Part shown: positions 1,434 through 50,800 of the stretch, in pieces
How the letters are laid out: every line of letters begins with the position of its first letter
Position numbering within the stretch: the first letter of the stretch is position 1
Notes under the pieces: model-generated
The model's database searches: none
Seen by the model: the letters and a program-made list of their open reading frames with translations, nothing else
What the model was told of the DNA's origin: nothing
Position numbers and translations under genes: made by a program
Origin: Somniosus microcephalus
Lineage: Eukaryota
DNA: 64,000 nucleotides
Assembly (NCBI GenBank): GCA_052327205.1
Contig: CM126216.1
Location: 70,370,001-70,434,000 of the forward strand
Direction of reading: 5' to 3'

Positions 1434-4400
1434 CTACCTTTTGGTCCGCAGCCGCCGAACAAGGAAGAGTCGCACCCGTTTGGATTCCCGTCGTAGAGGG
1501 TCGCTGGTCCGCTTACATGCGGTTGGCCATTGGCCAGAGTCCGTGTGGCCTGGATTGCCCTGTGAAGGGTCGGGGAGATCATGGCTTCGAGTACGAGCCC
1601 CAATAGGTTCAAAGTCAGACTGCCTCTGTTCAGAGGGAGGTGCAGAGCTGGTCTGTGGCAGACCAGTACTTTCATGCGTGGTACTGGGAGGGTCGCAACC
1701 TTGAGCACGGGGTTCTACCGGCACCAAGCTAGTTGGTGTCCGATCAGGATCCTGGAGAGGGGTACCCGATAGGTCCCAAGAGTTTCCTGGTGAAATGCCA
1801 TCACCCGATGTCCCACTAGGTCCTGGTGGGCAGGGAGCCAGATCCCGTAATGATACGGTAGATTCTCGGCCGTCGGAATATCGTATGTTTGCATAGGTGG
1901 GGTTGGCATCGGTTAGTTCGACCTCGTCTACAAGAGGGTCATTTTTAGACGTCCGAACGTATCTTCGGAGTAATACAGGTCCAGGAGTAGTTAGCCATGA
2001 CGGGAGTGATGTCCCATGAGATGAGCGACGCTGGAATCCAAAGAACCGCTCATGAGGTGTAGTATTTGTGGCTGTAGAAAGCAGGGACCGTATAGAGTGC
2101 AATGCATCCGGAAGCACTGTTTCCCATTGCTGGTCTGGTAGGCCCCGAGATCTTAAAGCGAGACGTACGGAATTCCAGATGATACCGTTATACCTCTCTA
2201 CCTGCCCATTTCCGATGGGATGGTATGGTGTTGTTTTGCTTGTAGCAATTCCCCGTTCTGAGAGGTAGTCCTTGAGTTCCCTCGACATAAAGGATGGACC
2301 CCGATCTGAGTGAATATAAGCCGGCATGCCACAGAGAGAAAATACCTGCTCAAGGCAGGAGATTACTGTGGACGCCAGCATATTGGAGCAGGGGAAGGCA
2401 AACGGAAAACGTGAATATTCGTCGATCATGGCGAGCAAATATGTGTTCCGAGTTGAAGAGGGCACTGGGCCCTTAAAATCGATGCTAAGTCGTTGCATCG
2501 GTTGGGTTGCATGTATGAGTATACCATCTGAGGGGCGGAAGAACTGAGGTTTTAATTCCGCACAAAGCCGGCATTCTGAGCATATTTTCTTTACATCTCC
2601 AGTGGAAAAAGGGAGATTCCGTGATCGTACGAAATGTAGCATGCGCGTAACGCCAGGATGGCACAAACCATTGTGGACATCCATGAGGGTGGAGGATGAC
2701 ATAGTGGAGCAGAATGCCCGTGTGAGGGTGTCCGGGGCCACATTCTCCTTGCCAGGCCGATAGAGAATGGTATAACCAAAAGAGGCCAGTTCCATCCTCC
2801 AAAGTTGTATTTTATTATTCTTAATTTTGGTTCGTTTTCGATTATCGAGCATGAAGGCGACTGATCGTTGGTCCGTGATCAATGTAAAGTGCTGGCGAGC
2901 TAGAAAATGGTTCCACTTCCGTACTGCCTCTATGATGGCTGTGGCTTCTTTCTCAACCGGAGGATAATGTAGCTCGGCACCTTGTAAGGTCCTGGACATA
3001 AATGCTACAGGACGACCTTCCTGATTCAGAGTAGCCGAGATCGCCACCTCCGAGGCATCACATTCAACCACGAAAGGGAGATTCTCATCAATGGAGTGAA
3101 GAGCCGCTTTCTCCAACTGTTTTTTGAGAAGGTTAAAGGCTGCAACAGCCGCTGTTCCCAGTGGAAATGATCTAGCATGCAGCAAGGGTTGGATTTTGTC
3201 CGAAAAATGAGGAATCCATTTAGCGTAGTATGCAAACAGACCGAGAGCCCGACGTAAAGAAGCCGGATTCTTAGGTGACGGGAGCTCATGGAGCGGGCGA
3301 AGTCTTTCTGGGTCTGGCTTAATGATACCATTGCCTACGCAGTAGCCAAGGATGTTGATGGTCGGTTGCGACTCAACAGATTTGGATTCATTCAGGGTCA
3401 AATTACGGCGATGGAGGGCATCCCGAAATTTTTGGAGGTTGGAGTCGTGTTCCTGTTGATCGTGACCTGCAATGGTAATGTTATCAAGATAGGGAAAAGT
3501 GTCCCTTAGGTTTTCCTGCTTAACCAGGCCATCCATTGCCCGTTGAAAGACAGCCACTCCATTAGTAACCCCGAATGGGAGGCGACGAAATTGGTACAGC
3601 CGTCCATTAGCCTCAAAGGCTGTGTACTGCTTATCTGAGACCTTCAAGGGTAACTGATGATAGGCACTTTTTAAATCGTAAGTTGAGAACACTTTGTATT
3701 CGGCCAGTTTATTAACCATATCATCAATGCGTGGCAATGGGTAGGCGTCCAAGTCGGTATATTGATTGATGGTTTGCGAATAATCGATGCATAGTCGCTG
3801 TTTGTGAGGTTTTAGAGGGTTCTTGACAATGACGACTTGAGCCCGCCAGGGCGACGAACATGGTTCAATGATATCCTCTGCTAGAAGTCGAGAGATTTCA
3901 GCCGCAATAAAAGATTGGTCTTCCTGATTAAAGCGCCGCGATTTCGTTATTATCGGTTGGCATTGAGGCGGAATACTGGCAAATAATGAGGGTTCATCAA
4001 GTGAAGCTGCTGATAATGCACAAAATGGTAATTTAGACGGTATATTAGAAATAATAAGTCCGGGTTTGGATCCACCAAACTCAATGGTGAGTTTCTTATG
4101 CTGTTTTTGGAAGTCCAGTCCTAAGAGGAGATCACTACATAAGTCCTTGAGCACCGAAAGTCGGGTGGAGGGATACATACGACCATGAAGTGTCATATCA
4201 ACAACACAAAAGCCGGAGATTCTGGTATTAAGTGATGACTGGGCCATCGCAATTGCCTGGTCCGATGGGAAGACATGTAGTTTCAATTTCGCAACAATCT
4301 GTTCCTTAATGAAACTATCAGTACTTCCTGAGTCAATTAAGGCATCTAAGGTATGCCCTTTAATTGAAATTTTTGTGGCAGCATGAGACAGGTTCTGTGG

Positions 4401-5360
4401 GCAAGCAGCTGTAATTGGTGTCGTTGCACAGAGAGTGGCTAAAACTCTCGGTGTGCTTCTTCGGGAGAGAGCTCGAGAGGAAGCTTGATAGGTCCTAGCT
4501 GGAGCATCTTGATAGGCCCTAATTGGGGCAGTTCGGTAGGCCTTAGCTGGATTGGCCCTCGTAGAGGCCCTTGATAGGCAAACTTTAGCAAAGTGTCCTT
4601 TTTTCCCGCAATAACTGCAGATTGCATTGCGAGCAGTGCAGGTTTTCCTAGGGTGAAAAGCATCTCCACAAAAGAAGCATTCCTTCCTAGATTGCCAAGA
4701 GGCTGCTAAAGTGGGGTCGTCCTCCTCTTCTTCATCAGAATTATCAGAATTAGATTCCCCCATGATAGGGTTCACCTGAGACCGCTTGAATTGTCTGGTT
4801 GCAGCTACAGCAGCAGATCGAGATCTGGGCAGCTGATAGAGGTCTGCATTTCTCTTTGCCAAATCCAGTGAACAAGCTAGGTCAAAAGCTTTTTGTAGCT
4901 CAAGTGTTTTACTTTCTAGCAGACGCTGGCGTATAAATGGAGAGGCAATCCCGCAGATGAAAGCATCACGAATCATTTCTTGGCGGTACAGCTCAGCTGA
5001 GGCTGCCTGAAAGTTACAATCTACGCTGAGCCTGCGAAGTTCTTGCAGGAATTCGTCAATTGATTCCCCTGGCCCTTGTCGGGCTGTGGCCAGTAGATGT
5101 CTAGCATAGACCTCATTTGGGGTCTTGGCATACAGTTTCTTAAGTGCCCGAATCACCTCATCGTAATTATCCCATTCATCAACATATTCGAACACTTTTG
5201 GGGTCACATAATTGATAAGTATCTTCAATCTAGCAGGAGCATCCGCTTCACATTCATCCAGAAAATTCTCAAAAGTACGGTACCAATGCTTCCATACCCT
5301 GCCAGCTGCTGGTGCATTCGGGTCCAAGTCCAGACGAATAGGTCTAAGGATTTTCTCCAT
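1434..5360 (-). CDS. Gypsy Gag-Pol polyprotein, 1308 aa (Gag CCHC knuckles, protease, RT, RNase H, integrase)
   Basis: CSYCGKKGHFAKVC knuckle; LIDSGS protease; RT motifs LPFG and YLDN; RNase H ECDAS; integrase H..HPG..C..C, DFKG, HSDRG, NGQVER; no stops. Confidence 0.97.
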   Translation of the reverse strand: MEKILRPIRLDLDPNAPAAGRVWKHWYRTFENFLDECEADAPARLKILINYVTPKVFEYVDEWDNYDEVIRALKKLYAKTPNEVYARHLLATARQGPGESIDEFLQELRRLSVDCNFQAASAELYRQEMIRDAFICGIASPFIRQRLLESKTLELQKAFDLACSLDLAKRNADLYQLPRSRSAAVAATRQFKRSQVNPIMGESNSDNSDEEEEDDPTLAASWQSRKECFFCGDAFHPRKTCTARNAICSYCGKKGHFAKVCLSRASTRANPAKAYRTAPIRAYQDAPARTYQASSRALSRRSTPRVLATLCATTPITAACPQNLSHAATKISIKGHTLDALIDSGSTDSFIKEQIVAKLKLHVFPSDQAIAMAQSSLNTRISGFCVVDMTLHGRMYPSTRLSVLKDLCSDLLLGLDFQKQHKKLTIEFGGSKPGLIISNIPSKLPFCALSAASLDEPSLFASIPPQCQPIITKSRRFNQEDQSFIAAEISRLLAEDIIEPCSSPWRAQVVIVKNPLKPHKQRLCIDYSQTINQYTDLDAYPLPRIDDMVNKLAEYKVFSTYDLKSAYHQLPLKVSDKQYTAFEANGRLYQFRRLPFGVTNGVAVFQRAMDGLVKQENLRDTFPYLDNITIAGHDQQEHDSNLQKFRDALHRRNLTLNESKSVESQPTINILGYCVGNGIIKPDPERLRPLHELPSPKNPASLRRALGLFAYYAKWIPHFSDKIQPLLHARSFPLGTAAVAAFNLLKKQLEKAALHSIDENLPFVVECDASEVAISATLNQEGRPVAFMSRTLQGAELHYPPVEKEATAIIEAVRKWNHFLARQHFTLITDQRSVAFMLDNRKRTKIKNNKIQLWRMELASFGYTILYRPGKENVAPDTLTRAFCSTMSSSTLMDVHNGLCHPGVTRMLHFVRSRNLPFSTGDVKKICSECRLCAELKPQFFRPSDGILIHATQPMQRLSIDFKGPVPSSTRNTYLLAMIDEYSRFPFAFPCSNMLASTVISCLEQVFSLCGMPAYIHSDRGPSFMSRELKDYLSERGIATSKTTPYHPIGNGQVERYNGIIWNSVRLALRSRGLPDQQWETVLPDALHSIRSLLSTATNTTPHERFFGFQRRSSHGTSLPSWLTTPGPVLLRRYVRTSKNDPLVDEVELTDANPTYANIRYSDGRESTVSLRDLAPCPPGPSGTSGDGISPGNSWDLSGTPLQDPDRTPTSLVPVEPRAQGCDPPSTTHESTGLPQTSSAPPSEQRQSDFEPIGARTRSHDLPDPSQGNPGHTDSGQWPTACKRTSDPLRRESKRVRLFLVRRLRTKR

Positions 5361-5442
5361 GATGGGTGGTTCCCTGGATCCTTAATTCCGAGTTTGTCCG
5401 AAGGTCTAGTATTCGTGAGTGTAAATACTAAGTTACTTAAAT

Positions 5443-9600: not shown

Positions 9601-11471
9601 TCATAATGTAACAGATTCATAATCTTGGGACTCTGGAGGTATTGCCAAACAATTCTCCGTGCCTAAATTTGCAGTTGCAGCTGTGACATATTCTTGCTGC
9701 ATATTTCCATCAGTAGGAGGAGGATGTACAATAGGATGAGTTGGTGTTTTTATCAGGCTTACAGTTTTATCCAAGGTCACATTAGTAACTGGAATATTGA
9801 CTTCAGGTGAGTCAACCTCTCTTACTGTACAGGTCCCTTTTTCATCACAGGTTGCAACCAACTGCGAGTCATCCTGCAGAGGCAATGCCATGTGCTTGAA
9901 GTTCAGAAGATTTTGCTCAGCTGCACGTGCCACATGAACTGAAGTCATGGATCTGACTATTTTACAGGAACTATTTAAACACTGCCTGACAGGCGAGACA
10001 GGCGAGGTCTGCATGATAGCAATCTGATGCTCAGGACTGTGGAAATTAATATTTCTTATAGGGTTCTGTTTGTGCACAGTTGGTGAATGTTTGGAAGGAC
10101 TCTGGTGAGCAGAAGGCATGACATGGTTTTCAGGGGCGTAAATGTCCCAGGCCTGCTGATACAAAATTGAGGCCTGTTCAGCAGGTTGTGGTTTATCTGA
10201 CAATTCTAATGCTTTAGGTGCACTGACAGTAGCATCTTCTGGTTTTGGTAACACAAGCTCCTTCTGAGCAAGTGCATGATTTTCATCATGTAGAATCTCA
10301 GTCATTGGTTCTGAAATAATCTGATCATACTTATACTCAGTATCTGATAAATTGTCATACTGAGAAACATTTGAAACCCGTCTTCCACTTTGGAACTCAT
10401 CCGCATCTTTTATTTCTGTGCTGTTCAAATCAACTGAAGTTTCTTGCGTTAAATCACTAAAGGATGATTTCTCCTCTTCTGGGGATGAAAGCTTCACTAA
10501 CAGCATAGGTTGTGGTTGATCAACAGGGGAATATGCTTCCAATTGTTCAGGGACATTCAGGCCAGAATAAGTATGCAATGTTTCTTGTGGATTTGGGAGT
10601 AACAAATGCATTTCCTCAGAGAACAGTTCTGCAGGGGGAGGCTCTGGGAAAGGTAATGGCGTATTCTCATTGTTTTTCAAATCTGTTAGTCCATCACTTC
10701 TCGATGGGGAGGGCTCATCACTGCTGTATTCTTCATCTAGGGATTGCTCATGCACGGACTCTGAAGCTAGTGCCTGGCATTTCTGCGGAGACTTTGTAGC
10801 CATATTTGTGAGTACAGAAACTTGATCAATTTCTGAACAGCATGCAGATTGTTCTTGCGGAGATTGGGTTTCAGCTATTTCAGTTGTTCCTGTATACTCA
10901 GCTTTGCTCATGTCTTGACAATTGATCATACTCGCTTCTGGAGAGTCGGTGGTTTCTTTTTCTGAAACTATAAAGTTAACTTCTTTTAAACTTGGGATTG
11001 CATCATTTTCTGCAATACAAGTCTCACTATTTTGAGCAGGTAGGATGTCTTCCTTCTTTGGAGGCTGCACTGTATCTTTTTCTGGGATAGGAGGTGGACT
11101 CATTTCTGAAAGTACCACTTCATCTTCTTTTGGTAATTGGGTTTGGTCTTTTAGAGGAGACGTGGAGTTATCATGGACTGGAGCTTGAGCTTTACAAATT
11201 TCCACCAAATGAGCATGGCTCTCTTCTAGAGAAGGAGTCTCATTCTTTTCTGGAGAAGGAGCCTCACTCTTTCCCACAGGCTCAGGGACAGAAGATTGGA
11301 TGTAGCTTTTTTCTGGTGATTTTCTGTCAACCTCATTATCAGGTTCAAAGTCATTTGATGGAGGATTAACCTTTTCATTCTTGCCATTGGCCAAGATGTT
11401 GGTCTTCTCTGGTTTTAAAGTGACAGAAATTTCCTGCCCTAATGGTTTGTTGGGAAACTCATCAGGTTTTG
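9601..11471 (-). CDS. USP6NL: Last coding exon of a USP6NL (RN-tre)-like TBC Rab-GAP gene (long disordered C-terminus)
   Basis: Acceptor ...ccattttag| at 11472-11473, phase 1. The exon opens (A)KPDEFPNKPLGQ, resembling USP6NL GKEDEYPKKPLGQ; internal RRVSNVSQYDNL resembles KRGSTASQYDNV; C-terminus ESVTL* resembles ESVLL*. About 620 open codons. Ortholog versus paralog cannot be resolved here. Confidence 0.8.
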
Positions 11472-12390
11472 CTAAAATGGATCAAAAAAAAAATGCCATT
11501 TAATCTGAAGATAATATAAAATGTAAAAGAGACAAATATTGTGTCTGTAAATTGTGCATACCATCTAAAATAATGTTCTTGCAGAATATAAGACATTGGT
11601 TCTATAGTACAGTATATAGGTTCAGTTCATTTAATTATTTGTTGTGTTAGATTTGGCTTTTCTTCGCACACATTTGTGCCTATTGATAAGATTCATAGAC
11701 TCTGAAGAAAACATTAAAACAGCATTTTAATCTCAGCAGAATGAGGGATAGAAGGAAAGGAAAAACAGGTCTGTTTAACCCTGCAACAAGTACTCCTCCT
11801 AGTGGCCAATGAGTCCCACTGAAAGTTTCTGTGGTTAAGTTGCACGAGGGGAAAATAGTGAAGGTGGCAACATTGCACTTGGAAGATAATCTAGAAAGGC
11901 CACGAAATTAAAATTTGCTGCACCAGTGTCAGGCACAGTCAGGACACTAACATGTTGCAATACAGAATGATAGGAGATAGGGTCACTCCTACAATTTCCT
12001 GCATGGTGAAGGCACCTGATGTAATCTGAGCTACTGCTGGGGACAAGGAGAAGGTCAAAGCAATGGAGGTATTTCCCCAGAAGCAGAAATTGTGAATCAA
12101 CTTGGGTCCATCCATCACCTCTCAGCTGGTTTCAGAATGACACCATCAGTGGCCTGGCCACAGGATATTCGGGTGCAACTTTTAACCAGAGAATTGTACC
12201 TGGAATAGGATAACCTAAAAGAGGGGAAAGAGGAGAACTGTTCATCATCAACAGCACCCAACATTCTATTTTGTCTGAACTGTTCAAATATTGATTTTAA
12301 TGTAAACTTTTCAAAAGAAAAAAATACTTTATCTAAAGAATTCAGTAAAATTATAATTTATAATTATGAAAGAATCATGAAATATTTGTT

Positions 12391-21005: not shown

Positions 21006-23455
21006 AGAGTCCCTTTCATGACCTCAGGGCATCCTAAAGCGCTTTACAGCCAATTAAGTATTTTTGAAGTGTAGTCATTGTTGTAATGTAGGAAGGCGGC
21101 ATGAGGCATGTGCAGTAGTGTTGCAAATAGTCACATTAAGTCAAATCATAAAAGACCCATAAATTGAATGTAAACCTCTGCTGTGGCTCCTTAATGGTTC
21201 AGTGGGAATGATGTGGTACTCGGCCAGACAGTCCAGTTAAGCCTTGGGTTCAATTTCACGTCTATGCAGTCAGCTGATCTCTACCAGAGCAGCAGTGGTG
21301 GCTATAATTAACCTCAATATCCTTAGGTTACATCGGGAGGAAAAAAACAGAGCTCCCACTCTTAACCTACATCCAGTGAACCCTGCTGGAAAGTGCACAC
21401 GTGAAAAAGCCAGGATTGAGCTCTTCTGTGATGTCCCAAGTCAAAAGAACTGCAACTCAGCATGAATTATCTCTTCCAGGTGATAAGGGGAGGAAAATGG
21501 AGGGAGGTGAGAGAGAAGAGAAAAACTGTAGGTATAGTATCAGCAAATATCTAATGGGACCTTTGAAATCAATTGATTGATGTTACAACAAAAGAAATGA
21601 ACCAGACTAAAAATTGTGTAAAAACAATTGTTTTTTTTCCTATGATTATATTATTGTTATTGTCAAGGACACGGGTTGGCATCTTGATACAGACATATAG
21701 AGAGAAAAGAAAGCAACAATAGAAATGCTACTCCCAACAGAGAGACAGAAATAGAAAATTACACACATCTAATTTTTCTTGTATTCTGCACATTTCCCCG
21801 TGTATTTCCTCAGTTTTTAAAAAATATTCAAGCACCAAGGATCAAAATCTCATAATTGTTTAATATTTTCATACTTTTTTGGTGCATTCTCATTTAGTGC
21901 ATGTATACAGTAAAAGACAGAAGTTACTAAAATACAAGACTTGGTGGAGGGGGTAATCACAGGCTACAGAAGAAATTCCGACTGTGATCGAGGGTCACTG
22001 CTAATATTTCAGGCTCAGATCAAAATTGGTTGCACTTTCTTCCCCTAATGGCTGAGTGGGTAAATGCTGCTCTGGGTGTTGTACTGAACTTTAAAGATCA
22101 GGAAGGTTCTGGGTTTGGCCTTTGTCCCTGCCGAGTAGACTGACCTCAGCTGGGTACCAGTAAGAACACTCAGTTAGGGTAATTTTGACTTTGTGCAAAA
22201 TGGGTGATAATAGAAACATAGAAACATAGAAGATAGGAGCAGGAGTAGGCCATTCGGCCCTTCGAGCCTGCTCCGCCATTCAACGAGATCATGGCTGATC
22301 ATCCAAACCTTAGCACCTGGTCCCTACACCGACAGCCATCCCACCCAAGCCCTATCCCCGTAACCCCACGTATTTAATCCCCCCTAACACTAAGGCCCAA
22401 TTTTTATCATGGCCAATCAACCTAACCTGCACATCTTTGGACAGTGGGAGGAAACCGGAGCACCCGGAGGAAACCCACGCAAACACGGGGAGAATGTGCA
22501 AACTCCACACAGTCACCCGAGGCCGGATTTGAACCCGGGTCCCTGGCGCTGTGAGGCAACAGTGCTAACTGTTGTGTATGTAATATGTGTGCTACTTTGA
22601 ACCTATGGACAGGACTGCACTACTTGTAGGGCGTAGTGATACGCAGTACCACTCCTGGCCATAGGGGTATAAATAGTACTGTGGGTACTGATCTCCCCTC
22701 AGTTCCCGCCTGTGGGCATGAAGTAAAGACCTACGTATAGTCCCTACCTCCAACCAGTAAAGACCTGTTTGAGTTATACGGTTAAGTCTTTGTGTTAATT
22801 GTTCAATACAATACACATACTTAACACTGGCGACGAGTCAGGTTCTTACCCTGCGGCAGTTGAAGAGAGGTTTCAATCATCACCACCCCACTAGAAGCTA
22901 CAGGCTTTAGGACTCTGAAGCCTCCATCAGCGACTGAGCACTGGAGTGCAGCAGCCATCCTGACAGCTTCCAGCGACTGACAGAAGTCTTTCTGCAGTTT
23001 CCTTGTTCAACCTAGGTGGTGGGGTAAGCCGTGCAGCGTCGGCTGCAAAGACAGGGCTGGGGAAGTTGGAGAAGATAAGGGCGATCGCAATCCCTGATAA
23101 GAGCCGCGGTGAAACGCGCGAGCGGGTGAGCCAGAGGCCGGGAGCCGCTTCAAGTGCGAGGCGCAGCGCGGGCCAGCGATCGGGACCAAAGATAAGGGCC
23201 GCACTCGGACTGAAAGGCGCGGCGGCTGCAGAAGCTCAAGGTGCGAGAGCCGCGGTGCACAGCGCGGGCTATCGATCGCGGCGAAGATAAGGGCCGCACT
23301 CGGGGGCTGAAGGGAGACGGCGTCGGGGGACGGGTGAAGACCGCCAAGCGCGGGAAAACCGCCATTTTGTGGGCGGAGGACGACGGCAAGAGCGGGAAGC
23401 CGCCATCTTTGATAACAAGTAAAGAAAATAAAATCTGAGAAATTGCAAATCTACA

Positions 23456-24703
23456 ATGCCTAAACACGGGAATATTAGCACCTTTGATAGTGACCTCGAA
23501 GATTGGGCCATATATGTTGAAAGAGTAAAAAATTATTGTAAGGCCAATAAAATTCGTGACCAAGATAAAGTTCTAACATTATTAAATTTAATGGGTGCGA
23601 AGACATACGGGCAATTGAAACACCTGTTATCACCAGATGAACCGGCGGATAAGACGTTCGATGAGATTGTTACTGTCCTGAAAGATCATCTAAACCCCAC
23701 GCCGCTGATGCTAGCGGAACGATTTAAATTTTACGACAGAAGGCAGCTGCAGCATGAAAGCAATGCTGAATATTTGCTGGAATTGCGTCAATTAGCGAAA
23801 TATTGCCAGTTTGGAACGGGACTGACAGATGCACTACGAGACAAATTTGTGTGTGGTTTATTTAAACAGGATACACAAAAGCGACTGCTCGAGGAGAATG
23901 AGCTGACGCTTGAGAAGGCGGTCACTATGGCAGCAGCACACGAAGCCGCAGCGAGAGGCACGGCAGTAATGCAGCTACGGTCACCGGAGCTCAGTGCACA
24001 CAAATTGGGTGTGAGTTCTGTTAAATGTTATCGTTGTGGAAAGACAACGCATGATCAGAACCAGTGTTGGTTTAAAAACCAAGAATGTAGAACTTGTGGT
24101 AGGCTTGGACATATAGCTAGAGTATGCAGGTCAGGGAAGAAGACCAGCAACAAGAAGTCACCGCAAGGAAAATACGCAAAGGTACACAAGGTGACCGAAC
24201 AGGAGTCCGATTCAGACGCTAGCAGTAATGAACTGGCTAGCTTAAGCTGTAATGAACTGGCTAGCTTAAGAGTACTCAACGCTGGTAAGGGTGCAGACCT
24301 CCAGACAATTTGGGTCACTCTTCAGATAGAAGGAGTCCAAGTAAAACTGGAATTGGACACTGGATCGGCATTGACGGTCATAAATAAGAAAGATTACGGA
24401 AGGTTATTCCAACATATTCCCCTACAGGATACGGGGATTATATTGAAAACATACACGGGGCAAAGAGTGTACCCCATCGGGAAAATAGAGGTTGCAGTGG
24501 TCCACAAGGGCGAAGACAGTCAAATAATGGACTTATATGTGATATCTGAAGGAGGTTCTCCACTACTAGGACGGGAGTGGATTAGGAAAATGAATATGGA
24601 CTGGCATTTCCTACAAACAATAACGAGTGAGAACTCGGTGAAGATAGTCGGCCCAGACTCTGGAACGGATGATGGTAAGCCCAACTCAGGTGCAAAAGAC
24701 AAA
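23456..24703 (+). CDS. Gag-protease, 5' part of the chimeric ORF (interrupted by a MITE at 24704)
   Basis: Mag-type Gag (WAIYVER, ERFKFYDRRQ, LRDKFVCG); knuckles CYRCGKTTHDQNQC and CRTCGRLGHIARVC; protease LDTGSA..LLGREW. Confidence 0.92.
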
Positions 24704-25390
24704 GGCCTAGAAATTGAGTTTGCGCTGCGCCAGGGCTTTAGCGCCGGAAGTTAGCGCCGGCGCTAAGTCCCTTTGCGCGCGCCAAAAATTCAGTAGCGCC
24801 GCGCCCAAACGGCTGCCGGCGCTACTGAAGGGTTTTAGCGCCTGAAAACTGGCACAACGCGCCGCATTGCGGCGCTATTCCGGCGCTGCGGCGCCCGCTG
24901 CGGTGCGGCAGGCTCGGGAAGTGCAGGCCTCCTCCTTCCGTTAAGGAGGAGCTGCCTGCACCCGGCCGCGGCCCGCGCAAATCTCTGAAAAAATGAGCCC
25001 GGCACCTCGGACAAGTGCCGGGCTTGCATCTGTTCCGGGGGGGGCGGGGGGGAGAAGTCCGGGGAGGGAGCTGCGGGCAGGCGGCCGGCGGGAAAGCGGC
25101 CGGCTGCCGCGCCTCCTTAAAGCGCCGGCGCAGACTCCGGCAACACTCGTTTGCTGGAGTCTTAGTTGCGGCTGCCACTGGCGAGGCGGCCGCAACTGAA
25201 TTTCGGCTTGGGGCCGGGTTACCACGGCAACCGGGACGCTGCGCACACCGATGACGTCATCGGTGCCGGCGCAGCGCTACCGGTCTACCGCCGCGGAAGG
25301 GCCCCAGGCAATTTAGGAACCGGCGCCAATTGCAGCGCTAGGCCCTCTAGCGCCGCAAAATCGGTGCTAAGGGCACTGAATTTCTAGGCC
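24704..25390. mobile_element. Harbinger-type MITE, 687 bp, very GC/CpG-rich
   Basis: Perfect 12-bp TIRs GGCCTAGAAATT/AATTTCTAGGCC; 3-bp TSD AAA (24701-24703, 25391-25393). Confidence 0.92.
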
Positions 25391-25393
25391 AAA

Positions 25394-26362
25394 GTTTCAG
25401 CACAGAATTCCACTGAGCAACAACAACATAGTTTAACTGTGGATTCTGAGTCTGGCAAGTCTACTGATGTGCCCATTTCTGAGGGACACCGGGCTCGAAC
25501 TCAACTCCATTTCAAACTACAACAGCAATTAGAACAAATGCTTCGCTGTTTTGAGCAAGAGTTGAATGCAACGAAAGAGTTCTTTGATATAGAGTTGGAG
25601 AATCTGGAAAGACAACAGAAGCAGCTGATGGAGAAAATGGAGCAGGAGCACACAAAACGTCTGATGTCAGAGGAGTTAACGGTCGGCCAACTCCTGCATA
25701 TGCTGAAGGACAGGACTCTGAAATGGGAAAAACTTGAACACGAACTTCAATATTCAAACGAAAGGGGTTCGGAGCTCTCAAAGGTTATTGGAAGAGCTGA
25801 GGTGGCAACACAGACTGAGATGACTGCAACAGAGCAACCCTTGGATGCCAAAAGTACGCTGACTCACGTCAACGTAGAACAACAGACCGCTGAAACAGCT
25901 GCTCCGGTAGAGGGATTGAATAGTCCGATCAATCAATCTCCAAAAGAAGTTGAAGTAGTAAAATCTCAAATGAGGTCATTAGTAAACGACTTGCTGAAAG
26001 CCCAGAAAAAGCTGGATGAAGAGGTACGCATGAAGAAGTCTCTTCAGGAAAGATGTCTGGACTTGGAACAAAAGCTGGCTAACGCCCAGCTGGGTATGGA
26101 GGAAATAGAAGACCCTCTCGCTGGCCTAGATCAGGACGACACCGAATATTACTATGTCCTGTCCTGCCCAACTTGTAACTTCGACTCCCACCATACAGAA
26201 ATCATGGAGGAGCACCGAAAGTCTACGGAACATCGGGAGAAGGTGGCTCTACTACGGAAAAAGGAGGAAGAGAAGGAGGAACTGCGCATGCAGCTGGCAG
26301 CTGACAGTGGAGCCCAGAGAGTCTCCAAGAAGCAGAAAAGGAAAAGTCGAAACAGAAGATGA
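25394..26362 (+). CDS. 3' part of the chimeric ORF: STK10/SLK-like coiled coil, optineurin-like coiled coils, C2H2 finger, basic tail
   Basis: In frame with gag-PR once the MITE and one TSD are removed. [34 protein letters not shown] is STK10-like; [14 protein letters not shown] and MKKSLQERC are OPTN-like; CPTC..H..H finger. Confidence 0.8.
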
Positions 26363-27999
26363 CCCATCTGAACCATTATTACCTCTACCAGATCACGCAC
26401 GTGGTCCCTCCGAACGGAGCCAATTCAGTTCGGAAGTTCAAACTGTTAAATCCATGGAAGGACTATTGAATGAGTCACTCCAGCAACGTGAACCGACTAC
26501 ACCACAGAGATTGAATCTGTGAACTGTTTTCCGCAGAGACTGAATCTGTGATCTGTTTTGACATGAAGTTATCTATGTATCTATGTTATTCTGTTATGTA
26601 AACCTGAAGTTATATATGTATATATGTTATTACGTTATGTTAAATGGGGAGATGACTGTAAAGCTAGGAAGGGAGGAATGTTGTGTATGTAATATGTGTG
26701 CTACTTTGAACCTATGGACAGGACTGCACTACTTGTAGGGCGTAGTGATACGCAGTACCACTCCTGGCCATAGGGGTATAAATAGTACTGTGGGTACTGA
26801 TCTCCCCTCAGTTCCCGCCTGTGGGCATGAAGTAAAGACCTACGTATAGTCCCTACCTCCAACCAGTAAAGACCTGTTTGAGTTATACGTTTAAGTCTTT
26901 GTGTTAATTGTTCAATACAATACACATACTTAACACTAACCACTCTGCCACCGTGCTGAATCGGCAGCTCATTTTACATCTCTCCTGACTTTGAATTAAT
27001 GGAAATAAAGATCAGGAGAGATGTAAAACGGGCTGCTGATTTACTATCACCCATTTTACACTATCGCACAAAGTCAAAATTACCCCCAGTGTATCTAGGC
27101 CAAGAAGGAATCATCCTGGCTTTCTGCTCCTGATTGCTGTTTAATGACCCTAGCTGGAAAGAGCATATGTGGCTGGCAGGTCAGGACAGGATCCAGCTCC
27201 ACTGTGATGTTCTCCAGCCCATTTGCCAAATAGCCTGCCAGCACTCACAAGGCTCTAATATTAAGAATGGGTGAGGTATCAGAGGACTGATGACACTCAT
27301 GAAAAGGCATCTAAGAATTAGACAACACCTTCATGAGGAGGAGGGAGAAAATTAGTTGCACAAATGGGGGGGGGGGGCATCTACTTCTGAAAAACAAAAT
27401 GCTGTGCATAAACGGGACTCTGTCAAGTGTTCTGAAGTGTGACTTTGCACCATTTGTTGCTTCTCGGAAAAAAGACAAAAATGTCAAAGTGCAGTACACA
27501 TCATTACTGTACATTTGAAACAAGCATTCCATAACAGGTCAAATTCTTTCCCCTGGCCACCAATGTGTCAATGTGTTTTCAGAGTTTTTTTTAATGGTTC
27601 TGTTTCTCTTCTCTTTCGCATTTCCATCCTTGCTCTTTGCTGGCAATTTGTATTATAGGAGTTGTAAAACCAGGAATTGAAGCTAAGTTTAATTTAGTAT
27701 GCACATTCTAATTTTTAATATAAAACCTGTATGAATAGTTAAATAATGAGTAATTAATTAGATCTAAGGGTATAAAATAAACTAAGTAAAAGATACCAAT
27801 ATTAAAGGGATCTGAATAACATTAAATAAATATCTGGTGTACACAAATAATAAATAGGAAATAATCAGAATAATTACAAATTAATTTGATATCAATCTAA
27901 TCCATCAACTAATTAATATTAGACCTCAAGCATTTTTATTAGCTCTGGAGATAAATTGCTGCTAACAATAAACAAATAAATAAAGATTAGATATGACAG

Positions 28000-43920: not shown

Positions 43921-46900
43921 CAAGACTGCAGAAGTCACTGGTGGGAGCAGTCTACAGGCCCCCTAACAGTAGCTACATAGAAACATAGAAGATAGGAGCA
44001 GGAGTAGGCCATTCGGCCCCTCGAGCCTGTTCTGCTTTTAATGAGATCATGGCTGATCATCCAAATTCAGTACCCTGTCCCTGCTTTCTCCCCATATCCC
44101 TTGATTCCTTTAGCCTTAAGAAATATATCTAACTCCTTCTTGAATATATTTAATAAGTTGGCCTCAACTGCCTTCTGTGGTAGAGAATTCCACAGGTTCA
44201 CCACTCTCGGTGAAGAAATTCCTCCTCATCTCAGTCCTAAATGGCATATCCCTTATCCTTAGACTGTGACCCCTGGTTCTGGACTCCCCCGCCATCGGGA
44301 ACATCCTTCCTGCATCTAGTCTGTCTAGTCCTGTTAGAATTTTATAAGTTTCAATGAGATCCCCTCTCATTCTTCTAAACTCCAGCGAATATAAGCCCAA
44401 TCGACCCAATCTCTCCTCATACGTCATTCCTGCCATCCCAGGTATCAGTCTGGTGAATCTTCGCTGCACTCCCTCCATAGCAAGAACATCCTTCCTCAGA
44501 TAAGGCGACCAAAACTGCACACAATACTCAAGGTGTAGTCTCACCAAGGCCCTGTACAACTGCAGCAAGACATTCTTGCTCCTGTACTCAAATCCTCTTG
44601 CTATGAAGGCCAACATACCATTTGCCTTCTTAACCGCCTGCTGCACCTGCATGCTTACCTTCAGCGACTGGTGCACAAGGACACCCAGGTCTCGTTGCAC
44701 TTCCCCTTTTCCCAATCTATTGCTGTTCAGATAATAATCTGTCTTCCTGTTTTTGCCACCAAAGTGGATAACTTCGCATTTATCCACATTATACTGCATC
44801 TGCCCAATCACCCAACCTGTACAAATCATACTGGAGTTTCTCTGCATCCTCCTCACAGCACACACGCCCACCCAGCTTTGTGTCGTCTGCAAACTTGGAG
44901 ATATTACATCTAGTTCCCTTGTCTAGATCATTAATATATATTGTGAATAGCTGGGGCCCTAGCACTGATCCATGCAGTACCCCACTAGTCACTGCCTGCC
45001 ACTCGGAAAAAGACCCGTTTATTCCAACTCTTTGCGTCCTGTCTGCCAACCAGTTCTCTATCCAAGTCAATACTTTACCCCCAATCCCATGTGCTTTAAC
45101 TTTGCATGCCAATCTCTTATGCAGGACCTTATCGAAAGCCTTCTGAAAGTCCAAATACACCACATCCACTGGTTCTCCCTTATCTATTCTACCAGTTACA
45201 TCCTCAAAAAATTCCAGTAGATTAGTCAAGCATGATTTACCTTTTGTAAATCCATGTTGACTTTGTCCGATCCTGTCACTGTTTTCCAAGTGCTCTGCTA
45301 TTACATCTTTTATAATGGACTCTAGCATTTTCCCCACTACTGATGTCAGGCTTACTGGTCTATAATTCCCCGTTTTCTCTCTACCACCTTTTTTAAACAG
45401 TGGGGTTACATTAGCTACCCTCCAATCCATGGGAACTATTCCAGAGTCTATAGGATTTTGGAAGATGACCAGCAATGCATCTACTATTTCTAGGGCCACT
45501 TCCTTAAGTACCCTAGGATGTAGATTATCAGGCCCTGCGGATTTATCGGCCTTCAATGTAGAACATAGTATAAATCAAGAAATAAGGGAGCTTGTAAGTA
45601 AGGTACTGCAATAATCATGGGCGATTTGAATCTTCATATAGATTGGACAAATCAAATTGGCAAGGGTAGCCTTGAGGAGGAGTTCATAGTGTGTATTCGG
45701 GATGGTTTCTTAGAACAATACATTGTGGAACCAACCAGGGAGCATGCCATTTTAAATCTGGAAATGTGTAATGAGACAGGATTAATTAAAGATCTCATCG
45801 TAAAGGATCCTCCAGGGAAGAGTGATCATAACATGATAGAATTTCAAATTCAGTTTGAGAGTGAGAAACTTGGGTCTGAAACTAGTGTGCTAAACTTAAA
45901 TAAAGGCAATTACAAAGGTATGAAGACAGTGTTGGCTAAAGTGGACTGGGAAAATAGGTTAATGGGTAAGACGGCAGACGGTAAATAAGCTGCGGCAGAC
46001 ATTTAAGGAGATATTTCATAACTCTCAGCAAAGGTTTATTCCAGTGGGAAAGAAAGACTATGAGAAGGATGAACCATCCGTGGCTAACTAAGGAAGTTAA
46101 GGAGGGTATCAAAGAACATAAGAAATAGGAGCAGGAGTAGGCCAATCGGCCCCTCAAGCCTGCTCCGCCATTTAATAAGATCATGGCTGATCTGATCCTA
46201 ACCGCCAATCTACTATCACAGAACCATCTCCTGAATCTAACAGAATTAGACACACGAAATAGCAGCAGGATCAGGCTACACGGCCCCTGGGCCTGCTCCG
46301 CTACCCACAGGGCCATGTCCGATCCGAACCTAGACTCATGTCCAAATTCCTGCCCGCTCCCCGTAACCCTTTATTCCCTTTACTTCTAGGAAACTGTCTA
46401 TTTCTGTTTTAAATTTATGTAATGATGTAGCTTCTACAGCTTTTTGGGGCAGCATATTCCATGGACCTACCACCCTCTGAGTGAAGTAGTTCCTACTCAT
46501 CTCAGTTTTGAAAGAGCAGCCCCTTATTCTAAGACTATGCCCCTTAGTTCTAGTTTCACCCATCATCGGGAACATCCTCCCCGCATCCACCCGATCCAAC
46601 CCCTTCACAATCTTATATGTTTCAATAAGATCGCCTCTCATTCTTCTGAACTCCAATGAGTAGAGTCCCAATCTACTCAACCTCTCCTCATATGTCCATC
46701 CCCTCATCCCCGGGATTAACCGAGTGAACCTTCTTTGTACTGACTCGAGAGCAAGTATGTCTTTTCTTAAGTATGGACACCAAAACTGTATGCAGTATTC
46801 CAGGTGCGGTCTCACCAATACCTTGTACAACTGAAGCAATACCTCCCTATTTTTATATTCTATCCCCCTAGCAATGAAAGCCAACATTCCATTGGCCTTC

Positions 46901-47441
46901 TTAATCACTTGCTGCACCTGCATACTAACCTTTTGAGTTTCGTGCACCAGGACCCCCAGATCCCTTTGTACTTCAGTACTTTCCAGTTTCTTGCCATTAA
47001 GATAATAGCTTGCTCTAAGATTTTTCCTGCCAAAGTGCATAACCTCACACTTTCCAGTATTGTATTCCATCTGCCAAATCTCTGCCCACTTACTTAGCCT
47101 GTCTATGTCACTTTGCAGGTTTTTTATGTCCTCCTCACTCACTACTTTCCCTCCCATCTTAGTATCATCTGCAAACTTTGATATGTTACACTTGGTCCCC
47201 TCCTCCAAATCGTTAATATAGATTGTAAAGAGTTGGGGACCCAGCACCGACCCCTGCGGAACACCACTAGTTACGGATTGCCATTCTGAGAATGAACCAT
47301 TTATCCCAACTCTCTGCCTTCTGTTAGATAGCCAATCCTCTATCCATGCCAGAATATTACCCCCAATCCCGTGATTTTTTATCTAAAGCAATAATCTTTT
47401 GTGTGGCACCTTGTCAAATGCCTTTTGGAAGTCTAAATACA

Positions 47442-47850
47442 CTAATATAATATAATAATAATTCAACTTTATTGTCATTGTACAATGCACAAGTACATGA
47501 ACAACAAAATGTGATCTTGCAAGCTCCCATGAGTCCAGTACAAATAACATTAACATTAAACGTAAATAGCACCGTCCTGGGAGAAGCAAAGCTGCTGCGT
47601 CTGTGCGCGCCGCCATTCCATTTCCACCATTCCTCCTGTCCGACAATCTTCAGCCCAACGCCCGGGCCTGCTCACCAGCCGCCCCTCCCGGGGCTCCTTC
47701 CGTGACCTTCTCACCAACCGCCCCTCCTCGGGGCTCCTTCCGTGACCTTCTGCGCCTGGTCTTCCCTGATGGTCACCCCTCCAGATACTAACCAGGCCTG
47801 GCTCTGCTTAGCTTCCAAACCTTGCCAGTGACCCTGTCCCTAGTCCCAGG
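47442..47850 (-). mobile_element. 5S rRNA-derived SINE (SINE3-like) with Rex/Babar-type tail
   Basis: Minus strand GGAAGCTAAGCAGAGCCAGGCCTGGTTAGTATCTGGAGGGGTGACC resembles the 5S internal control region; tail ..ACAATGACAATAAAGTTGA matches 53290-53352. Confidence 0.75.
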
Positions 47851-50800
47851 AACGTCCACTGGTTCCCCTTTATCCACCCTATATGTTACTTCCTCAAAGA
47901 ACTCCAGCAAATTTGTCAAACATGACTCCCCCTTCATAAAACCATGCTGACTTTGTCCTATTAAATGATGATTATCCAAATGTCCTGTTACTGTCTCCTT
48001 AATAATGGACTCCAAAATTTTACCTACCACAGATGTTAGGCTAACCGGTCTATAGTTTCCAGCCTTCTGTCTACTGCCCTTTTTAAATAAGGGTGTTACA
48101 TTTGCAGTTTTCCAGTCTGCCGGGACCTTTGCTGAGTCCAGGGAGTTTTGGAAAATTATTACCAATGCATCCACAATCCCTACCGCCACTTCCCTCAAGA
48201 CCCTAGGATGTAAGCCATCAGGTCCAGGTGATTTATCCGCCTTGAGTCCCATTATTTTACCGAGTACCACTTCCTTAGTGATTTTGATCGTGTTTAGCTC
48301 CTCCCCGCCTATTTGTTTGTCCAGTGTTGGGATATTCTTAGTGTCTTCTACTGTAAAGACTGATACAAAATATTCAGTGTTTTTGCCATCTCCATATTTC
48401 CCACCATTAATTTCCCGGTCTCATCCTCTAAGGGACCAACATTTACTTTAGCCACCCTTTTTCTTTTTATATAACTATAAAAACTCTTACTATCTGTTTT
48501 TATATTTTTTGCTAATTTACTTTCATAATCTATCTTCCCTTTCTTAATCAATCTTTTTGTTATTTTTTGCTGTCTTTTAAAGTTTTCCCAATCCTCTATC
48601 CTCCCACTAGATTTGGCTACCTTATATGCCCTTGTTTTTAGTCGAATACTATCCTTAATTTCTTTACTTAGCCACGGATGGCTGTCTTTTCTTTTACACC
48701 CTTTTCTTCTCAGTGGAATATATATTTTTTGGAAGTTGTAAAATAACTCCTTAAATGTACACCACTGATCATGTATCGTCTTACCCTTTAATCTATTTTC
48801 CCAATCCACTCTACTCAATTCCGCTCTCATACCTTCATAGTCTCCTTTATTCAAGCTCAGCACGCTTGTTTGAGATCCAACCTTCTCACCCTCTACTTGA
48901 ATATGGAATTCAACCATGTTATGGTCACTCATTCCAAGGGGATCCTTTACTAGGACATTTTTAATTAATCCTGTCTCGTTACACAGGACCAGATCTAAGG
49001 TTGCTTGCCCCCTGGTCGGTTCAGTTACATACTGCTCAAGAAACCCATCCCTAATACACTCAATGAACTCATCCTCAAGGCAGCCCTGCCCAATTTGATT
49101 TGTCCAATTAATATGATAGTTAAAATCCCCCATAATTATAGATGTTCCCTTATTACAAGCCTCAACTATTTCCTGATTGATACTCCGTCCAACAGAGTTG
49201 CCACTGTTCGGAGGCCTATAGACTACGCCCACTAGTGTTTTTTTCCCCTTATTATTCCTTACCTCCACCCAAACTGTTTCATTATCCTGATCTTTTGACC
49301 CAATATCATTTCTCTGTATTACAGTGATTCCTTCCTTTATTAACATAGCCACCCCACCTCCCCTTCCTTCCTGCCTGTCCTTCCTGATCGTTAAATAACC
49401 TGGTATGTTTAATTCCCAGGCAGTCACCCTGCAGCCATGTTTCTGTAATGGCCACAAGATCATACCCATATGTAGTTATTTGTGCCATTAACTCGTCTAT
49501 TTTGTTACGAATGCTACGTGCATTCAGATAGAGAACTTTCAAATATGTTTTGTGACACTTAGTTCCTGCTTTTGCCCTTTTTATTACTTTACCTTTTACT
49601 CCATACCTTCTGCCCCTTCCTTACACGCTCTGGTTTTTAATTTCCCCACTGCTACCTAAGTCTATGACCTTCTCTGTTGTCATTTTTATTATTTGCTCTC
49701 TAGGAACCTCCCCCCCACTAGTTAGTTTAAAGCCCTCTCTACAGCCCTAGTTATATGATCCGCCAGGACTCTAGTCCCAGCACTGGCCAAGTGAAGCCCG
49801 TCCCAACGGAACAGCTCCCTCCTGCCCCAGTACTGGTGCCAGTGTCCCAGGAAGCAAAACCCATTTCTCCTACACCAGTCTTTGAGCCACGCATTTAACT
49901 CTCTAATTTTATTTGTCCTAGCCAAATTTGCTCGTGGCTCAGGTAATAACCCTTGAGGTTCTGTTTTTAAATTTGACCCCTAGCTGCTCATACTCCTTTA
50001 ACAGAACCGGCTTCGTAGTCCTATCTACGTCGTTTGTACCAACATGGACCACGACAACTGGATCCACCCCCTCCCACTGCAAGTTTCTTTCCAGCCCAGA
50101 GGAGACGTCCTTAACCCTGGCACCGGGTAGGCAACACAGCCTTCGGGACTCTCGCTCTCGGCTGCAGAGAACTCTATCTATCCCCCTAATAATACTATCC
50201 CCTACCACTACAACATTTCTAGTTACTCCCCCCTCTTGAATGGCCCCCCGTTCCACGGTGCTGTGGCCAGGTTGCCCATCCTCCCTGAAGTCCCTGCTCC
50301 CGTCCCCACAGGGAACAAATTGAAAGAAAAGGCATACAATGTAGCCAAGATTAGTGGTAGGCCAGAGGATTGGGAAATTTTTAGAAAGCAGCAAAGGATG
50401 ACTAAAAAAATAATAAAGAGGGAGAAGATAGATTATGAGAGTAAACTAGCAAAAAATATTAAAAACAGACAGTAAGAGCGTCTACAGGTATATACAAAGG
50501 AAGAGAGTAGCTAAAGTAAACATTGGTCCTTAAGAGGATGAGACTGGGGTATTAATAATGTGAAACAGGGAAATGGCACAGACTTTGAACAAATATTTTG
50601 CATCGGTCTTCACGGTAGAAGACACTAAAAGCATCCCAATAATAATTGATAATCAAGGGGTTATAGGGAGGGAGGAACTTAAAACAATCACTATCACTAG
50701 AGAAAAAGTACTAGGCAAACTAATGGGACTAAAGGCTGACAAGTCCCCTGGACCTGATGGCCTGCATCCTAGGGTCTTAAAAGAAATGGCTGCAGAGATA

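Follow-up and report, generated by a model that had tools for sequence, protein, structure and literature searches.

Results

Architecture of the locus

The window, that is the whole stretch of 64,000 nucleotides analyzed here, contains a young Gypsy-type LTR retrotransposon lacking pol. A piece of optineurin (OPTN) lies in frame inside this element, together with gag, protease, pieces of STK10 and a tail derived from DNAJC21 (Table 1). Of the features tested for non-autonomous Ty3/Gypsy elements, the LTRs, the target-site duplication and gag were found without reverse transcriptase (RT) or integrase, and no RT, RNase H or integrase follows the protease in the window copy. The motif just inside the 5' LTR is presumably a tRNA primer site. 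No tRNA was detected in the window, and Rfam gave no match over the element. Close to the 3' LTR, positions 26599-26692 match pol-bearing relatives at 90-91% in 5/7 loci. The sequence-only reading of the locus had described the OPTN segment as part of a Gag fusion. This does not hold for the window copy, where a 690-nt insertion (24704-25390) breaks the Gag-protease frame before the cargo, but it does hold for other copies, with one open frame of 737-753 codons in 16 of 20 unselected copies.

The insertion is GC-rich, ends in 16-bp terminal inverted repeats and contains a short duplication rich in A, and contig depth indicates high copy number; we take its ends to be Harbinger-like. The LTR element is nested in a SINE-like repeat (22400-22569 and 26936-26955), which itself lies between the inverted-repeat arms of another element (about 22177-22212 and 27042-27085). 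Elsewhere on the minus strand, the window carries a gag-pol frame of 1,315 codons, intact and coding for protease, RT, RNase H and integrase, from a Gypsy element of different appearance (1434-5381), a 626-codon open frame without a Pfam match at E 0.01 (9601-11481), and LINE-type endonuclease and RT fragments (44789-49475).

Table 1. Features of the OPTN-bearing element and its insertion site (positions in the window)
Feature	Position	Strand	Remarks
5-bp target-site duplication, left copy	22565..22569	+	right copy 26936-26940
5' LTR, 257 bp, TG...CA	22570..22826	+	1 difference in 257 to the 3' LTR
Primer-binding-site-like motif just inside the LTR	22828..22837	+	common to most family copies
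gag with two CCHC zinc knuckles	23456..24140	+	zf-CCHC E 2e-4 (above cut-off); Retrotrans_gag E 0.02 (below cut-off)
Aspartic protease, DTG intact	24314..24606	+	gag-asp_proteas E 7e-4 (below curated cut-off)
STK10 exon 9 piece, first part	24625..24702	+	88% to host G000:C8:167196962-167196885
Terminal-inverted-repeat insertion, non-coding, frame-breaking	24704..25390	.	RNA reads skip 690 nt in both runs
STK10 exon 9 piece, second part	25390..25485	+	85% to host
STK10 exons 11-12 piece, spliced; start of PKK coiled coil	25481..25662	+	93% and 91% to two host exons; Pfam PKK E 3.9e-8
Spliced OPTN piece, four host exons	25655..26106	+	joints after 25764, 25936 and 26052; host exons G000:C17:85884683-85890195
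6-nt microhomology at the STK10/OPTN joint, scar of 318-nt in-frame deletion	25658..25663	+	
EVATQTE with TQT motif inherited from OPTN	25799..25819	+	ATQTE itself 25805-25819
STK10 exon 8 stub, joined to OPTN at 8-nt microhomology	26096..26113	+	
DNAJC21-derived zinc-finger piece, decayed	26114..26353	+	approximate boundaries; stop codon 26360-26362
STK10 exon 8 end and exon 9 start remnant, behind the stop	26354..26474	+	86-92% to host
Purine-rich tract before the 3' LTR	26663..26678	+	
3' LTR, 257 bp	26679..26935	+	

Identity and extent of the optineurin piece

The peptides on which the suggestion of an OPTN capture was based are found in the translated ORF 25388-26362. The 140-residue stretch gave six significant matches among 489 candidates, all of them shark OPTN (60-71% identity, E 1e-44 to 1e-33), which marks the host as a cartilaginous fish. 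The proposed similarity is thus real, with the best identity of 71% referring to the shark OPTN proteins that the similarity search returned. Pairwise alignment to the best shark OPTN (667 residues) covered residues 219-384 with 114/166 identical positions (E 9e-65), and the piece spans about residues 226-384 of the shark OPTN reference. Searched by blastn against the host gene on G000:C17, the piece matches four consecutive exons at 80-91% identity. It crosses three host exon joints exactly and lacks the introns of 552, 2017 and 2469 nt, as a captured segment spanning exon junctions of the host gene would. The segment had been placed correctly at 25664..26083, but by blastn it is slightly larger (25655-26106). 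Longer relatives of the element match six OPTN exons, five of them at 96-99%, and loci L037 and L039 contain five OPTN exon joints without the introns. The segment is captured OPTN inside a known kind of chimera. The OPTN piece had no Pfam match, the cargo ORF matched nothing in PDB below E 0.5 by sequence search, and atlas searches with the cargo returned generic zinc-finger and coiled-coil look-alikes alone.

The assembled host OPTN (G000:C17:85884780-85885410, L056) has two bases too many close to where two of the captured exons meet, and these put it out of frame with other shark OPTNs and with the element copies. Two nearby substitutions alter the TQT motif. This oddity of the host frame reflects either an assembly error or a broken allele.

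Motifs kept and lost in the piece

The window piece ends at residue 384 and includes neither the N-terminal region nor the autophagy receptor features of OPTN, namely the LIR (183), the ubiquitin-binding UBAN (557) and the zinc finger. The LIR is present in 25/27 long loci and in 0/20 loci of the short subfamily. Reviews tie LC3 and ubiquitin binding to the OPTN parts missing here (PMC5962687, PMC6018216). A role of the segment as a decoy or trafficking module, which had been put forward as speculation, is weak for the short subfamily since LIR, N-terminus and UBAN are absent from its piece. The 318-nt deletion at the STK10/OPTN joint removed the LIR, and the decoy idea is therefore weak for the window copy.

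The TQT motif is the anchor motif of the consensus site for the dynein light chain LC8 (DYNLL). The likeness of ATQTE to such a site was also pointed out by the sequence-only reading, and the motif is indeed present as a candidate LC8-type site (Table 1). It is inherited from the host, as it occurs in 4/4 shark OPTNs checked, and it is kept in 20/20 short copies. It was not found in 7/27 long loci, among which L043 and L049 share an in-frame loss removing it. In shuffles of the segment, a TQT arises in 5% of cases.

STK10 cargo and the founder joint

The STK10 assignment stems from the PKK match and from a longer version in a relative, which matches STK10 best. STK10 pieces flank OPTN in permuted order (residues 385-478, 616-686, OPTN, 307-389), with the exon 8-9 remnant lying 3' of exons 11-12. 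An OPTN-less ancestor was predicted from this order, and the genome was searched for the end of STK10 exon 12 (the numbering assumes one unfetched first exon). The sequence occurs at 1,163 places, a count that should include the host gene, and is missing from OPTN-bearing copies. In 10/10 inspected loci, the exon 12 end is joined to the start of exon 8, exactly in nine and with a 4-nt loss in one. No STK10 sequence outside exons 8-12 was matched in the loci L135-L144. Host exons 8-12 amount to 1,245 nt, a multiple of three free of stops. The cargo of L136 and L141 equals this length plus 11 nt exactly, and that of L143 and L144 equals 1,245 nt plus 5 nt after a 6-nt loss. Relatives thus carry sequence features of a circRNA-derived copy, that is a non-colinear donor-to-acceptor joint and exons of the circle alone. 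Given one unit plus 11 nt and the exon 12-8 joint, the founder cargo is likely the copy of a circular STK10 RNA of the host, made in a single full turn.

In the 100 kb fetched for the host gene, every STK10 exon is present a single time, and a search of the introns on either side of exons 8-12 turned up no inverted repeats between them. The exon 12-8 joint is absent from the long and short OPTN copies compared. In the window copy, it is replaced by OPTN and the permuted exon order remains. Identity of the STK10 parts to the host is 97-99% in five circle copies, 85-96% in ten long copies and 88-92% in nine short copies. Apart from the family, locus L069 (G000:C3:354658655-354658948) is intronless and 96% identical to STK10 residues 753-850, which lie outside the exons of the circle; it is probably a separate STK10 retrocopy. 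Host STK10 exon 10 (G000:C8:167193683) seems to end at a GC donor site.

Joints, deletions and the order of captures

In long relatives, STK10 continues beyond the point where it stops in the window, then passes into OPTN at a 9-nt microhomology, and the joint leading from OPTN back into STK10 exon 8 has a microhomology of 7 nt. The window joint between STK10 and OPTN corresponds to a 318-nt in-frame deletion at a 6-nt microhomology, and the other OPTN end was trimmed by a 159-nt deletion at an 8-nt microhomology. The direct adjacency of STK10 and OPTN noted from the sequence is correct, as shown by Pfam PKK and host exons 11-12. The joint was made by the later deletion and is therefore not the capture junction. 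All cargo-to-cargo joints examined show microhomology, which at the OPTN joints measures 9, 7, 6 and 8 nt; where pol gives way to STK10, little of it is clear with the relatives compared. Genome-wide, the window joint has 4,297 matches versus 2,206 for the long joint, with 0 for the reversed control of each. OPTN replaced the STK10 exon 12-8 junction at the latter 2,206 places.

Six large deletions separate the subfamilies, all multiples of three (417, 159, 102, 93, 69 and 318 nt), although the compared pieces were taken from open frames and the in-frame state is thus partly built in. The STK10 remnant located after the stop codon is gapped, and its frame is shifted. A gag-protease tree (28 rows) nested the short group, with a long branch, among the circle copies; it was left out of the inference on event order.

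DNAJC21 tail and other cargo

The tail of the cargo is DNAJC21-derived. The call comes from a better-kept variant of the tail in L024; for the window's own tail, a protein search gave no match. The L024 variant matches zf-C2H2_jaz and has 14 protein matches; five of the top six, all but the fourth, carry the name DNAJC21. A likely DNAJC21 gene lies at C1:2.65-2.68 Mb. Its later exons are absent from the 100 kb fetched, which hold 1,000 N, and the host exon of the tail was not located in this sequence. A degenerate motif search yielded nothing. A ZHD family match at C17:58.36 Mb was rejected as DNAJC21, with no zinc-finger exon matched in 180 kb; we take the exon there to resemble DNAJC2.

Further cargo was found in other copies. 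In circle-bearing relatives, STK10 exon 8 is interrupted by a pair of I-set Ig domains of the titin/obscurin/MyBP-C type (L138:754-1404, minus strand; also L142). A coiled coil of 236 residues lies between the STK10 and OPTN pieces of L082 (4806-5513, plus strand) and seems to resemble the ANKRD24/RAI14/UACA family. L142 (608-1075, plus strand), and in part L135, has an in-frame insert of 156 residues between protease and STK10 with a C2H2-like motif; the insert had no Pfam match.

Copy number, chassis and pol-bearing relatives

Host coding fragments sit behind Gag at at least 7,600 places. A first-look figure of 15,797 candidates was rejected as a copy number, as it is not a copy count. The protease motif of the window element occurs at 11,452 places; among 30 loci sharing it, 18 carry cargo, 11 continue into pol and one stops at once. 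The unselected short copies are 20 loci drawn from the first 32 listed, omitting protein-search matches and loci already seen in that list. LTR pairs could be scored in 16 of these 20 and are 98.1-100% identical.

In seven pol stretches, which belong to six elements, the frames that include RT are 902-1,320 codons long, with the order protease-RT-RNase H-integrase as read from the translations. Their gag-protease is 86-88% identical in DNA to the window element where that part was aligned alone, and their LTRs are 76-81% alike over the ends to those of the window family. This pol-bearing family provides candidate helpers. Between the long and short subfamilies, dS is 0.58-0.88 in gag-protease and 0.12-0.18 in the cargo, and the LTRs differ. 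Since dS of the cargo is far below that of gag-protease and the LTRs are not the same, the cargo cassette would have recombined onto a different gag-protease/LTR chassis.

Selection on the cargo

OPTN dN/dS is 0.44-0.69 between long and short copies (p 0.009-0.23) and 0.49-0.63 between host and short copies (p 0.03-0.09), two sets of pairs that are not independent of each other. The ratio is 0.18-0.28 for gag and protease and 0.7-1.1 for STK10. Variants shared among the 20 unselected copies have pN/pS of 0.23 in gag (p 0.003), 0.76 in protease, 0.99 in STK10, 0.62 in OPTN (p 0.25) and 2.39 in the DNAJC21 tail, and private variants in unselected copies have pN/pS near 1. A lower OPTN pN/pS of 0.07 was rejected as an artefact, its 29 loci being the best protein matches. 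The OPTN part contains no indel in the 20 unselected copies. Several large rearrangements have left the frame of the cargo intact, and its sequence now differs from the host by 8-14%. The constraint signal in gag could have been imported by recombination with the pol-bearing family.

Expression

Raw RNA reads were taken from a species label that holds the element and may not be the window's own species; four organism labels hold at least 47% of the sampled words. In run X23, depth over the OPTN bins was 660-1,450 with an about 17-30-fold bias to the sense orientation, and 194 reads skip the insertion 24704-25390. In run X24, strand bias was weak. The reads show transcription of the family, not specifically of the window copy.

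Discussion

Origin of the chimera

We suggest that the OPTN piece was captured from a spliced mRNA by template switching into a circle-founded element, and that it serves as filler rather than as a mimic of OPTN; on balance, this is probably the right account. The piece is likely a frame-keeping filler behind Gag-protease under at most mild constraint. The same chassis also spreads with unrelated cargo, such as Ig domains or a different coiled coil, which argues for a filler. Some constraint on the OPTN piece (dN/dS < 1) and the DNAJC21 insertion, which ends the frame early, count against it.

The proposed series of events begins with the replacement of RT, RNase H and integrase by STK10 exons 9(3')-10-11-12-8-9(5'), with the exon 12 donor joined to the exon 8 acceptor and an 11-nt overlap at the ends, as can be read off the copies. 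The template may have been a co-packaged circRNA of 1,245 nt, around which the enzyme would have traveled once before switching back where RNase H had cut its starting point. Six spliced OPTN exons then replaced the exon 12-8 junction at the 9-nt and 7-nt microhomologies seen in long copies, likely by template switching of the reverse transcriptase. In-frame deletions, apparent from the subfamily comparison, shortened OPTN on either side and took away the LIR, and the element gained a piece of DNAJC21. Recombination might have placed the cassette onto the new gag-protease/LTR chassis. The resulting element could make its own Gag and borrow RT and integrase from the related pol-bearing family. 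Copies with one long open frame might spread better through RNA stability or packaging in cis, and the encoded content of the filler would matter little.

Alternative readings

The circular template concerns the origin only, and the exon 12-8 joint might instead come from a linear RNA, through trans-splicing or a past duplication of STK10 exons. The lack of inverted repeats in the flanking introns would fit such an origin, as would the fact that the circle is deduced from genomic copies alone, and the text of PMC4897178 allows that non-colinear joints can arise otherwise. Cargo of exactly one unit plus 11 nt is not what a linear template would lead one to expect, however, and within the 100 kb fetched the host gene has no exon in duplicate, so that we regard a linear origin as improbable. 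Once founded, the cargo and even its open frame could be neutral passengers. The frame would then be open through youth and through microhomology-favored in-frame joints, as microhomology between coding sequences may by itself favor joints that keep the frame. LTR pairs of 98-100% identity, private pN/pS near 1 and STK10 dN/dS of 0.7-1.1 are what neutral hitch-hiking would produce. But the cargo lies 8-14% from the host and has gone through several large rearrangements with the frame still intact, whereas the STK10 remnant behind the stop is gapped and frame-shifted; pure hitch-hiking seems very improbable to us.

Two further readings give the OPTN piece a task as a protein. It might be a module whose coiled coil and putative TQT/LC8 site dimerize or transport Gag-protease in place of pol. 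An OPTN dN/dS that stays below 1 (0.44-0.69) in every pair, whether long copies or the host are compared with short copies, the TQT in every short copy and the lack of OPTN indels speak for a module, as do the cores that survived several deletions (STK10 PKK and the OPTN middle), which are of coiled-coil type like the L082 cargo. But L043 and L049 lost the TQT in frame, the motif is simply inherited and turns up in 5% of shuffles, circle-only and Ig-carrying elements spread without OPTN, and the OPTN pN/pS of 0.62 at shared variants is not significant. A literature search gave no paper that brings optineurin, DYNLL1 and the three domain terms together. A module is a doubtful option, though the main rival to a filler. 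The fragment could also act as a decoy that dampens OPTN-dependent autophagy or signaling against element particles. Sense transcription of the family and retention of the LIR in 25 of 27 longer relatives would be compatible with a decoy, and OPTN is described in PMC5962687 as oligomerizing and binding LC3 via the LIR. The larger subfamily has nevertheless lost the LIR (4,297 vs 2,206 matches), and the TBK1-binding N-terminus and UBAN/zinc finger were found in no captured piece, element matches having begun near residue 131 and ended near 447. We consider a decoy highly unlikely. A filler captured from spliced mRNA remains our preferred reading.

A bolder version would have a vertebrate Gypsy lineage that wrote in one turn of a circRNA by template switching and became a self-amplifying exon-shuffling platform, taking up at least five host RNAs in frame behind Gag and keeping coiled-coil modules, the OPTN piece among them, as aids to particle assembly or travel. 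We offer this tentatively, as an unlikely extension. If true, it would explain how circRNAs can be retroposed and would show a retrotransposon that has enlisted adaptor domains of its host in its own cycle.

Implications and comparison with known systems

Cargo consisting of one circle plus 11 nt in the place of pol points to template switching inside an LTR particle. How circRNAs are copied into genomes is left open in the text of PMC4897178. Capture intermediates, including the optineurin step, are still present in one genome. The fragments sit behind a sense-transcribed Gag at a number of places far above the one to five copies given for maize Bs1 (PMC5131818, PMC13317346). The family may give rise to novel chimeric proteins or to transcripts, sense and antisense, that match OPTN and STK10. 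It will also confuse gene annotation, read mapping and expression estimates for both genes.

Among the papers listed in literature searches outside subscription journals, none described this family or an LTR element that had taken up a circRNA; similar cases may sit in supplements. The closest relatives are the LTR-mediated retrocopies of animals (Tan et al. 2016, PMC5131818). As in the retrocopies described in the main text of that study, pieces of spliced mRNA without introns replace part of the internal ORF between the LTRs of the shark element, with microsimilarity at the switch points. Several genes per element, often in frame, and re-mobilization as non-autonomous elements are likewise common to both. 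The retrocopies have few insertion sites each, and the word "circular" is absent from the main text, whereas the shark element has thousands of copies, preserved intermediates and a founder of back-splice type. Maize Bs1, as presented in PMC5131818 and PMC13317346, is also an LTR element and carries pieces of three host genes in a chimeric ORF. Bs1 has one piece out of frame, while the shark element is from a vertebrate, has gag-protease in frame with the cargo and shows at least 4,297 copies of one joint.

The 33 mouse circRFWD2 copies reported as circRNA-derived pseudogenes (Dong et al. 2016, PMC4897178) share with the shark founder a non-colinear exon joint in genomic DNA, the lack of poly(A) and LTR sequence nearby. 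The text of that report calls the mechanism mysterious and places LTR enrichment in the flanks alone, whereas the shark circle lies inside the element in the place of pol, as one turn plus 11 nt read in frame.

Two further systems offer a comparison. TR-GAG elements resemble the shark element in having LTRs and gag (and protease) without RT or integrase, but were described in plants, and in-frame host cargo is not known to be part of their definition. Acutely transforming retroviruses with gag-onc fusions similarly join host coding sequence to gag and are replication-defective and helper-dependent. Unlike these, the shark element is without env, has relatives with Gypsy-type pol, carries fragments without catalytic domains and gives no sign of a transforming function. 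The capture of mRNA by LTR elements is already known; new here are the likely circRNA founder, the serial in-frame captures and the copy number.
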